Below are positions 6,958 to 24,277 of a stretch of 64,000 bases of DNA, piece after piece. The notes under the pieces are model-generated. The model ran no database searches. It was given only the letters and a program-made list of their open reading frames with translations, and had not been told where the DNA came from. This DNA comes from a bacterium (GTDB lineage Bacteria; Patescibacteriota; Minisyncoccia; Phycocordibacterales; Phycocordibacteraceae): NCBI GenBank assembly GCA_021849125.1, contig JAJZTG010000002.1, forward strand, positions 76,573 through 140,572. The letters run 5' to 3'. The translations under genes were made by a program, and so were the position numbers. How positions within the stretch are numbered: position 1 is the stretch's first letter; the number at the start of each line of letters is the position of its first letter.

Positions 6958-7024
6958 AGGTACCTAAAGTATACCGCGCGCAAGCGTAGCTTGCGCGCGG
7001 TATTACACAAATACGTGCAGAATG

Positions 7025-22868: not shown

Positions 22869-22892
22869 TATTTAGCGCGCAAACACCTCAAG

Positions 22893-23810
22893 CTATGTTC
22901 GTCGGGAGTGATATTTCTTGTGGATCTCGCGTAGGTGGGCATCGGTGACGTGAGTGTAGATCTGGGTAGTATTGATCGAGGCGTGGCCGAGGAGCTGCTG
23001 CACGGAGCGGATGTCGGCCCCGTTGCTCAGAAGATCGGTCGCGAAGGCGTGGCGCAGGGTGTGCGGAGTGACGATCGAGGTGATGCCGGCGCGCGCGACG
23101 TAGTTTTTCAGATGACGCTGCACATCGCGCGGTGTGATGCGATGCGGGTGTTTCGGGCGACCGTCGACGAAAAGCGCCTCCTCCATATCGTCGCGTGCTT
23201 TCAAGTAAGTACGGACCGCCTCCTTTGCGGCAGGGGAGAGGAAGACGACGCGGACCTTCTCGCCCTTTCCGCGCACCGAAAGCTCGTCACGGGAGAGGTC
23301 GAGGTCGCTGTTGAGCGAGCAGAGTTCGCTCACGCGAAGTCCGGTCGAGAAAAGCATCTCGAAGATCGCCGTGTCGCGTAGGTACGCGCGCTTTTTATGC
23401 GGATCGGTCTCTTTTGCAGCGGCCTCACGAGGTGCTTTCATGAGCCGGTCGAGCTCGGAGGAAGTGATGAGGTCGAGCTGGCGCTCAGGGAGCTTCGCAA
23501 GCTCGATCTTCTCGGGTGAGATAGCTGGCATATCGCGCTTCCGGAGAAACTTGAGGAACGCGCGCAGCGCGATCATGTAGTAATTCTGCGTGCGTCGCTT
23601 CATCGAGTCGCGGCCGGAGCCTGGTTGGCGGTTGAGCCAGAGACGGAACTCGCGGATGTTCTGCTCGGTGATGTCGCCAGTGGTTTTCACACCCATCTGT
23701 TCGAAGTAGCGGGAGAGATAGTGGTCGTAATTCTCGACGGTTTTGACCGCACGGCCGCGCTCGATCTCTATATATTCAAGAAATTGCCGTTTTGCCGCCT
23801 GGGCGTCCAT
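22893..23810 (-). CDS. xerC: tyrosine site-specific recombinase, Xer-type
   Basis: Catalytic residues R, HxxR and Y in ...TPHTLRHAFATDLLSNGADIRSVQQLLGHASINTTQIYTHV. Start chosen at MDAQAAKRQF (23810). Confidence 0.85.
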   Translation of the reverse strand: MDAQAAKRQFLEYIEIERGRAVKTVENYDHYLSRYFEQMGVKTTGDITEQNIREFRLWLNRQPGSGRDSMKRRTQNYYMIALRAFLKFLRKRDMPAISPEKIELAKLPERQLDLITSSELDRLMKAPREAAAKETDPHKKRAYLRDTAIFEMLFSTGLRVSELCSLNSDLDLSRDELSVRGKGEKVRVVFLSPAAKEAVRTYLKARDDMEEALFVDGRPKHPHRITPRDVQRHLKNYVARAGITSIVTPHTLRHAFATDLLSNGADIRSVQQLLGHASINTTQIYTHVTDAHLREIHKKYHSRRT

Positions 23811-23829
23811 ACGAAAATGGTAGCATGCG

Positions 23830-23861
23830 AAGTGCGCACAATATGACGTTGTTGCGCACAA
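23830..23861. promoter_or_regulatory. dif-like imperfect inverted repeat (candidate Xer recombination site or operator) immediately upstream of the xer gene
   Basis: AAGTGCGCACAA-TATGACG-TTGTTGCGCACAA. The adjacent region carries further GCGC-rich palindromes, including TTGCGCGCAAAACGCGCGCAAG. Confidence 0.35.
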
Positions 23862-24010
23862 ACGAATGCAAAGACGCGCTTGCGCGCAAAACGCGCGCAA
23901 GAACGTGCGAAATTGCGGACCATCCCGCACATTCTCGCCGAGAGGCTCCCGAGCTCGTTATTACGAAAGACTTGCGCTTTTTGGCAAGACGTGGTAGGGT
24001 AGGACTAATC

Positions 24011-24277
24011 ATGCTTACCACGAAGAAAAAGACTACCGTCATCAAGGGCGTAGCTCGCCATGACACGGACACCGGCTCGGCCGATGTGCAGATCGCTCTT
24101 TTGAGCAAGCAGATCGACGAGCTCGCCAAGCACCTGAAGAAGAACCCGAAGGATTTCCATTCTCGCCGCGGACTTCTCCAGATGGTGGCCGATCGTCGCG
24201 CACACCTCCGCTATCTCGAGACCAACAACAAGCGCCGCTATACGGCACTTATCAAGAAACTCGGTCTCAAGAAGTAA
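24011..24277 (+). CDS. rpsO: 30S ribosomal protein S15
   Basis: MLTTKKKTTVIKG...HLKKNPKDFHSRRGLLQMVADRRAHLRYL. RBS AGGAC upstream of the start. Confidence 0.9.
   Translation: MLTTKKKTTVIKGVARHDTDTGSADVQIALLSKQIDELAKHLKKNPKDFHSRRGLLQMVADRRAHLRYLETNNKRRYTALIKKLGLKK

Follow-up and report, generated by a model that had tools for sequence, protein, structure and literature searches.

Are the boxes that crowd the upstream region of a xer recombinase gene a site for chromosome recombination or an operator? This question is raised by a Candidatus Kaiserbacteria-type genome of Paceibacteria, in the CPR (Candidate Phyla Radiation), of which one 64-kb stretch, here called the window, was analyzed as a whole. 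In the window, xer and rpsO diverge from a 200-bp gap that holds all the boxes, upstream of xer (Table 1). A sequence-only reading had described them as a dif-like inverted repeat followed by an array of GCGC palindromes, and had offered two interpretations, the dimer-resolution site of a single-Xer system and an autoregulatory operator. The strings that it quoted are present in the divergent gap, AAGTGCGCACAA at 23830-23841, TATGACG at 23842-23848, TTGTTGCGCACAA at 23849-23861, and TTGCGCGCAAAACGCGCGCAAG at 23880-23901.

The xer product is the single tyrosine recombinase of the window (n = 1), and contains the Pfam domains Phage_integrase and SAM-like. It passes the NCBIfam XerA_Arch model with 236.3 bits (cut-off 220), stays under the cut-offs of the XerC and XerD models, and scores 119.7 bits against the XerS model, the cut-off of which is 267. 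The nearest solved structure is XerA of P. abyssi (4a8e), and an identical protein is encoded in GCA_027321305.1.

In the output of a repeat finder, TGCGCACAA is directly repeated without a mismatch at a distance of 20 bp (23833 and 23853), position 23881 carries a third copy (TGCGCGCAA), and a hairpin has its arms at 23874-23887 and 23893-23906. When the first pair is read as an inverted repeat, a 1-nt bulge (an extra T) and a 7-8-nt spacer are required, and the reading is possible only because TGCGCA is self-complementary. The two boxes of the claimed inverted repeat do exist, but their best register is direct. Matches to GCGCRCAA number 19 on both strands of the window, and 5 of the 19 lie within 23834-23900. 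About 0.01 would be expected per 67-bp stretch by our estimate, and the clustering is far above chance. The gap folds into three consecutive hairpins at −44.8 kcal/mol (z = −3.3 versus shuffles). Its GC-rich palindrome contains two GCGCGCAA boxes, arm-like with one mismatch, and the outer arms of the third palindrome are GAGAATGTGCG and CGCACgTTCT.

Table 1 Features of the divergent xer and rpsO genes and of the gap between them, in window coordinates
Feature	Position	Strand	Remarks
xer	22893-23810	minus	XerA-like tyrosine recombinase, 305 aa
xer extended −10 element TGcTACCAT	23817-23825	minus	predicted; 6 nt upstream of ATG
Half-dif site	23831-23844	minus	ATATTGTGCGCACT in xer sense; AGTGCGCACAATAT on the plus strand
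Second box TTGTTGCGCACAAACG	23849-23864	none	weak copy of the arm, directly repeated at 20 bp from the half-dif site
GC-rich palindrome CTTGCGCGC-AAAAC-GCGCGCAAG	23879-23901	none	inverted repeat I1 of the repeat finder; hairpin in the fold
Third palindrome GCGAAATTGCGG-ACCATC-CCGCACATTCTCGC	23907-23938	none	hairpin in the fold
rpsO promoter (putative)	23972-24000	plus	TTGCGC, 17-nt spacer, TAGGGT after TGG; 10 nt before ATG 24011
rpsO	24011-24277	plus	ribosomal protein S15

Intrinsic terminators were considered for the hairpins, as a scan gave weak minus-strand candidates at 23874-23896. They were rejected because the flanking genes diverge and leave nothing there to terminate. Elsewhere in the window, another GCGCGCAA box lies at 22873-22882, 11 nt beyond the xer stop in a 24-nt gap to a convergent ORF, and an inverted GCGCGCAA pair lies at 6976 and 6991 (6976-6998). 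These boxes are probably terminator hairpins.

Upstream regions were aligned among 80 related xer loci with an Xer protein identity of 52-85%. The alignment contains a single conserved 14-15-mer, aATATTGTGCGACAT, with a Kaiser-clade form ATATTGTGCGCACt, and it is present in 63 related loci. A position weight matrix, for which training and scoring used the same sites, gave 62 matches of at least 15 bits in 626 kb, compared with 2.6 in a shuffled-sequence control. Fifty-seven of them, from 56 of 79 loci, fall within about −60 to +5/+14 of the xer ATG, and four of the other five are at most 210 nt upstream. In the window, the matrix has one strong match, which scores 18.1 bits and occupies −34 to −21 relative to the xer ATG. 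Information content is highest in the inner heptamer TTGTGCG and the adjoining centre nucleotides, and lowest in the outer bases.

Each locus has one 14-mer, in either orientation. It is positioned at −25 to −60 in 34 loci, at −8 to −24 in 12, and across the start codon in 11. In these 11 loci, the ATG inside the 14-mer is the xer start codon itself, and ATGTCGCACAATATT is translated as MSHNI. A closer set, fetched later, comprises relatives with 84-95% identical Xer (including L139, L143, and L150-L156). All of them carry one site at −33, identical or nearly identical to that of the window, then TGnTAnnCT, 6 nt, and the ATG. About a quarter of the loci have no recognizable site, including L004 and L008 with an Xer identity of 78-81%, and some close relatives have kept xer and lost the site. 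The motif is present in 30 loci where rpsO is not the neighbor, so the site follows xer, not rpsO.

The identity of the 14-mer is given by full dif sites of CPR bacteria. Metagenome contigs were searched for facing arms with TGTCGCACAATN{2,8}ATTGTGCGACA, which allows centres of 4-10 bp between CAA and TTG. The search found 31 loci, and the gap was exactly 4 in 31 of 31, making an 11-6-11 site, where by our estimate chance would give fewer than one match, at random gaps. The CPR dif is (A)TGTCGCACAA-N6-TTGTGCGACA(T), 28 bp long, with a centre of the form TnnnnA, such as TATACA, TATTTA, or TGTATA (the last in L097 and L114). Its two arms are identical, which implies a single recombinase.

In two cellular contigs (L098 and L106), dif is found in the gap where secF converges with two T4CP-like genes, and public records place secD of L098 in Patescibacteria or Ca. 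Berkelbacteria. The same setting recurs on a complete Berkelbacteria chromosome (CP066697.1, 768,650 bp), which carries ATGTCGCACAA-TGTATC-TTGTGCGACAT at about 437 kb, between convergent secF and T4CP-like genes and far from xer. GC skew there is +0.029 on the left and −0.040 on the right, a local maximum of cumulative skew is at most 0.9 kb away, and related contigs are alike. This site is the predicted canonical dif of the chromosome. As for its surroundings in Berkelbacteria (L134:12784-18173; L098:2374-7703; L106:9-4273), dif invariably has two large tandem DUF8128/TrwB-like genes, which are type IV coupling protein-like, on one side and secF-secD on the other. At short dif loci of the metagenomes, GC skew was positive in 5 of 11.

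Here 'half-site' refers to the xer-linked 14-mer, as it consists of ATGTCGCACAA and TAT, that is, one dif arm with the first 3 nt of the centre. The consensus of the 14-mer and the dif arm with its centre are identical at 14 of 14 positions. In the window, the inner heptamer CGCACAA occupies 23835-23841 and the TAT of the dif centre 23842-23844, preceded by the outer triplet GTG of the Kaiser clade. The likeness to an Xer-binding arm that the sequence-only reading noticed is therefore real, and it is a likeness to one arm plus TAT of the 28-bp CPR dif. The Kaiser variant departs from the dif arm at the three outermost bases only (GTG for TGT), which fits the finding that XerCD contacts are concentrated on the seven innermost arm bases (PMC9226527).

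Full dif was located in Berkelbacteria and the half-site in Paceibacteria, and not both in one genome. The Berkelbacteria xer, upstream of rpsF-ssb-rpsR, has no half-site, and none of about 90 loci has a full dif within 4-10 kb of xer. A Kaiser-type dif in synthetic form would be GTGCGCACAA-TATACA-TTGTGCGCAC. Searching viral contigs for the full Kaiser variant, GTGCGCACAAT-N4-ATTGTGCGCAC, gave 0 matches, and a looser pattern gave 3, about the chance level. The only link of a full dif to Paceibacteria is indirect: a protein encoded on a dif-bearing contig (L119) has a counterpart with at least 90% identity in a Ca. Taylorbacteria MAG. A literature search found no description of the CPR dif, or of the 14-mer in a relevant context.

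The half-site coincides with the predicted promoter of xer. In 45 of 78 loci, a TAnnnT hexamer has its last base 6-7 nt ahead of the ATG, and the TG extension is present in 30 of these 45; each other offset is found in 0-8 loci. With the hexamer that close to the ATG, xer seems to have an extended −10 promoter that yields a leaderless mRNA. All positions of the 14-mer are within the typical footprint of RNA polymerase on this putative promoter, so that the site overlaps it in the window and in the 56 of 79 loci. The spacing between the 14-mer and the −10 element ranges from 4 to 8 nt or more. The 14-mer was also considered as a −35 core element, and this was rejected in view of its two orientations and its positions from −60 to +14.

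On the rpsO side (23971-24010 in the window; L001-L014 and L047), a conserved pattern, cTTGCr-N8-9-CAAG-N4-TGGTAnnnT, stands 7-10 nt ahead of the ATG. It resembles a promoter in which TTGCGC is the −35 element and the spacer contains a CTTGC/GCAAG inverted repeat, and it would serve a near-leaderless rpsO. This promoter element is not part of the Xer site. The S15 mRNA leader was discarded as an explanation of the boxes, as they come before the rpsO promoter and Rfam gave no match at the gathering score or at E values up to 10. An NrdR box was discarded as well. ATATTGTGC is like one half of what we take to be the NrdR consensus, acaCwAtATaTwGtgt, but the other half is absent, the conserved GCGACAT falls outside it, and xer is not an nrd gene. 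By eye, no convincing match to a DnaA, ParB, or LexA box was seen.

We consider it moderately likely that the half-site is an autoregulatory operator of xer, through which Xer would repress its own synthesis. At a full dif, four Xer monomers would occupy the two 11-bp arms of each of two sites, and recombination would proceed across the 6-bp centre. At the xer promoter, a lone arm would be embedded in the core promoter, and strand exchange would be impossible with one arm only. An Xer monomer on −34 to −21 of a leaderless extended −10 promoter would then hinder RNA polymerase, resulting in negative feedback and a low recombinase level. We infer from the sequence comparisons that Xer binds the half-site and that this binding represses transcription, and that Paceibacteria keep a full dif elsewhere.

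If no strand exchange occurs at a lone arm, any orientation and exact position would do, provided that the arm covers part of the promoter, a second arm would not be kept, and some lineages could have lost the site, as L004 and L008 have. The operator alternative of the sequence-only reading thus suits the site, which in either orientation always lies over the putative xer promoter. For difSL, which lies in the xerS promoter, Le Bourgeois et al. (2007) proposed autoregulation of this kind (PMC1914069). A simple and widely conserved feedback loop would result if the recombinase used a single arm of its recombination site as an operator, a loop speculated on previously for XerS/difSL only.

The 14-mer could instead be the operator of another protein, a dedicated repressor of xer, with the likeness to a dif arm arising by coincidence or from competition with Xer. 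Overlap with the promoter regardless of orientation is expected of any operator, and a dimeric regulator could be suited by the partial dyad AT.T.G..C.A.AT or by the longer palindrome of the Kaiser clade (AATAATGTGCGCACAATAT in L001). In addition, Berkelbacteria have the same dif arms without a site at xer, so arm specificity alone does not produce an operator. Against this reading, 14 of 14 consensus positions equal dif arm and centre. The 626 kb of related sequence hold essentially no further copy, hence the 14-mer is not part of a regulon, and no conserved regulator gene travels with xer, whose neighbors vary. We regard another repressor as unlikely.

According to a second alternative, the sequence beside xer is a functional dif within a xer-dif module, with AAGTGCGCACAA as a strong arm and TTGTTGCGCACAA as a degenerate one. 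The site adjoins xer in most Paceibacteria, and its arm is a genuine dif arm. Known modules also provide parallels, as difSL has an extra right-arm nucleotide (PMC5357621) and is located within the xerS promoter or close to it (PMC1914069), and dif of Sulfolobales is near xerA (PMC2958812). The second arm argues against a module, since it is conserved at no spacing or orientation. Columns flanking the 14-mer in the alignment carry about 0 bits, with no partial second arm at the expected positions. A partner arm within 45 bp, sought in any geometry with the full 14-mer matrix, was not enriched over random anchors, and an inverted partner was found in 1 of 60 loci. A relaxed pair scan with a 10-mer sub-matrix, in both geometries and with gaps of 0-12, returned L021 only.

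Half-site pairs of another kind, tail to tail and thus with a geometry opposite to dif, were seen at L141:1440-1485 (L141/142) and L021:3943-3972. Together, the two half-sites of a pair read as one long, perfect palindrome (such as GAGAGATTGTGCGCAC-TTTGTGACAAA-GTGCGCACAATCTCTC), and this arrangement originated independently in two lineages. A degenerate scan of viral contigs for the tail-to-tail geometry gave chance-level hairpins only.

In the window itself, the second box keeps CGCACAA intact but lacks the TAT. It scores 8.2 bits in the direct orientation only, and under 9 bits in the inverted orientation. When the window is aligned to L001 and L010, insertions hold the second box and some of the GC hairpin, and the third palindrome is common to the window and these two loci only. 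The GC-rich palindrome was not found in L139, L143, or L150-L156, and relatives with 84-95% identical Xer have no second arm, GCGC hairpin, or third palindrome. In a relative with 95% Xer identity, the gap is just 106 bp. Related genomes were expected to share the palindrome, and this holds for the xer-proximal box (56 of 79 loci) but not for the second arm, which is absent in 59 of 60 more distant loci. Judging from these alignments, the extra boxes at 23849-23938 are arm-like repeats and palindromes gained only in the lineage of the window. They may provide weak additional Xer binding or have no role. The weight that the sequence-only reading gave to the GCGC array is thus misplaced, most of the array being lineage-specific decoration.

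Further evidence against a module comes from its would-be centre and from the terminus. The centre of the CPR dif is strictly 6 bp, whereas the pair in the window needs 7-8 bp and an indel. In the 11 loci where the 14-mer spans the start codon, the stretch that would have to serve as centre and second arm is xer coding sequence and has no dyad symmetry. The variable spacing between the site and the −10 element and the close relatives with xer but no site also speak against a module. GC skew around the site in the window is positive on both sides (+0.024 left, +0.011 right), and no switch appears on average across 45 loci, where the mean left-minus-right difference is −0.002 (p = 0.78). The xer locus carries no terminus mark, neither a skew switch nor convergence of the flanking genes, which diverge. 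With no inverted second arm, no 6-bp centre, and no skew switch, the dimer-resolution interpretation fails these tests, and so does that of a complete dif kept beside xer, as only a half-site is there and dif of Berkelbacteria is far from xer. A functional xer-dif module is very unlikely, and the site in the window is not the dif of this genome.

As a variation of the module, the promoter-embedded arm could be the only chromosomal target of Xer in Paceibacteria, a 'one-armed' dif with a second half that is non-conserved and sometimes made of xer codons. We hold this to be highly improbable. If true, bacteria with tiny genomes would resolve chromosome dimers on a single-arm site fused to the recombinase's own promoter. 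Lastly, an architectural half-site, used by Xer apart from recombination and gene regulation like the SMC-unloading XerD sites of Bacillus, has precedent in non-dif Xer-binding sites (Karaboja 2021, cited in PMC9226527), but it is extremely improbable, because the Bacillus sites are in the terminus region and have a 5-bp partial second arm where the 14-mer alignment has about 0 bits, and because the site here has no terminus signal and is tied to the xer promoter.

The half-dif operator and the CPR dif can be placed among known systems as follows. E. coli dif is GGTGCGCATAA-TGTATA-TTATGTTAAAT. It shares with the CPR sites the arm core CGCAyAA followed by T-R-T and the highest conservation of inner bases, its centre recurs unchanged in some of them (L097 and L114), and by our count it agrees with CPR dif at 18 of 28 positions. 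The two arms of CPR dif are identical and suggest one recombinase instead of XerC and XerD, under whose cut-offs the Xer of the window remains. Thermococcales dif agrees with E. coli dif at 14-18 of 28 positions (Cortez et al. 2010, PMC2958812). The XerA/dif system of Archaea, as in P. abyssi, is similar in the recombinase, by the NCBIfam XerA model and the nearest structure, and in the site, whose 11-6-11 layout and identical arms are what one recombinase would be expected to use. The dif of Berkelbacteria is likewise not beside the recombinase gene. The present lineage differs in being bacterial (CPR), and a solitary arm in the recombinase's own promoter, present here, is not described for XerA systems.

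Recombinase genes of Tn3 (res/TnpR) and of Tn4430 and Tn5401 (IRS/TnpI) are autoregulated through their own full, functional recombination sites. The likeness is a recombinase site over its own promoter, putative here, and extra boxes may lie nearby. These transposon sites can recombine but the lone arm cannot. In XerS/difSL of streptococci and lactococci, an Xer-binding sequence is also found just upstream of the recombinase gene, probably within the promoter (PMC1914069). However, difSL is a complete two-armed terminus site of 31 bp, while one conserved arm without a terminus signal is found here, and XerS belongs to a family different from the Xer of the window. The XerD-binding sites (XDS) of B. 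subtilis and S. aureus, cited in PMC9226527, act on SMC from the terminus region and retain part of a second arm. They resemble the half-site in that Xer binds them away from dif and no recombination is involved (putatively so here), but the half-site is solitary, over a promoter, and tied to xer.

The CPR dif, RTGTCGCACAA-N6-TTGTGCGACAY, is testable by itself, and its identical arms imply a single XerA-like recombinase. The motif can be used to mark replication termini in metagenome-assembled genomes of CPR bacteria. Full 28-bp dif sites were also found in phage-like contigs of IMG/VR (L096, L102, L103, L108, L110, L114, L116, L120, and L122-L132), usually with terminase small or large subunit genes alongside (Pfam Terminase_6N in L103). 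The available parts of these contigs contain no Xer-like integrase. By analogy with IMEX elements, the contigs may be tailed phages that integrate via the host Xer, and dif beside terminase genes makes it worthwhile to look for tailed phages that exploit Xer in CPR hosts. The 23-kb L119 (4970-11581) has a dif-like site together with its own tyrosine recombinase (about 30% identity with Xer) and an ATPase of 233 aa that weakly matches Zot of inoviruses. In L095 (710-790) and L109 (820-900), a direct repeat TGACCCCTGTTACA lies on both sides of a dif-like site, and could be a duplication from an insertion event.

The surroundings of xer are an insertion hot spot in close Kaiser relatives (L141, L143, L154, and L156). 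Accessory cassettes with HicA, Fic/RhuM, RelB/YafQ, and small ORFs occupy the rpsO-xer interval or the interval that separates xer from the exonuclease III gene, with no arm-like sites flanking them. Among the closest cluster representatives, several proteins of 650-870 aa (P0245, P0248, P0255, P0264, P0282, and others) have two Xer-like stretches, and they could be fused or interrupted recombinases. One of them, P0248, begins with MSHNI, a translated half-site.
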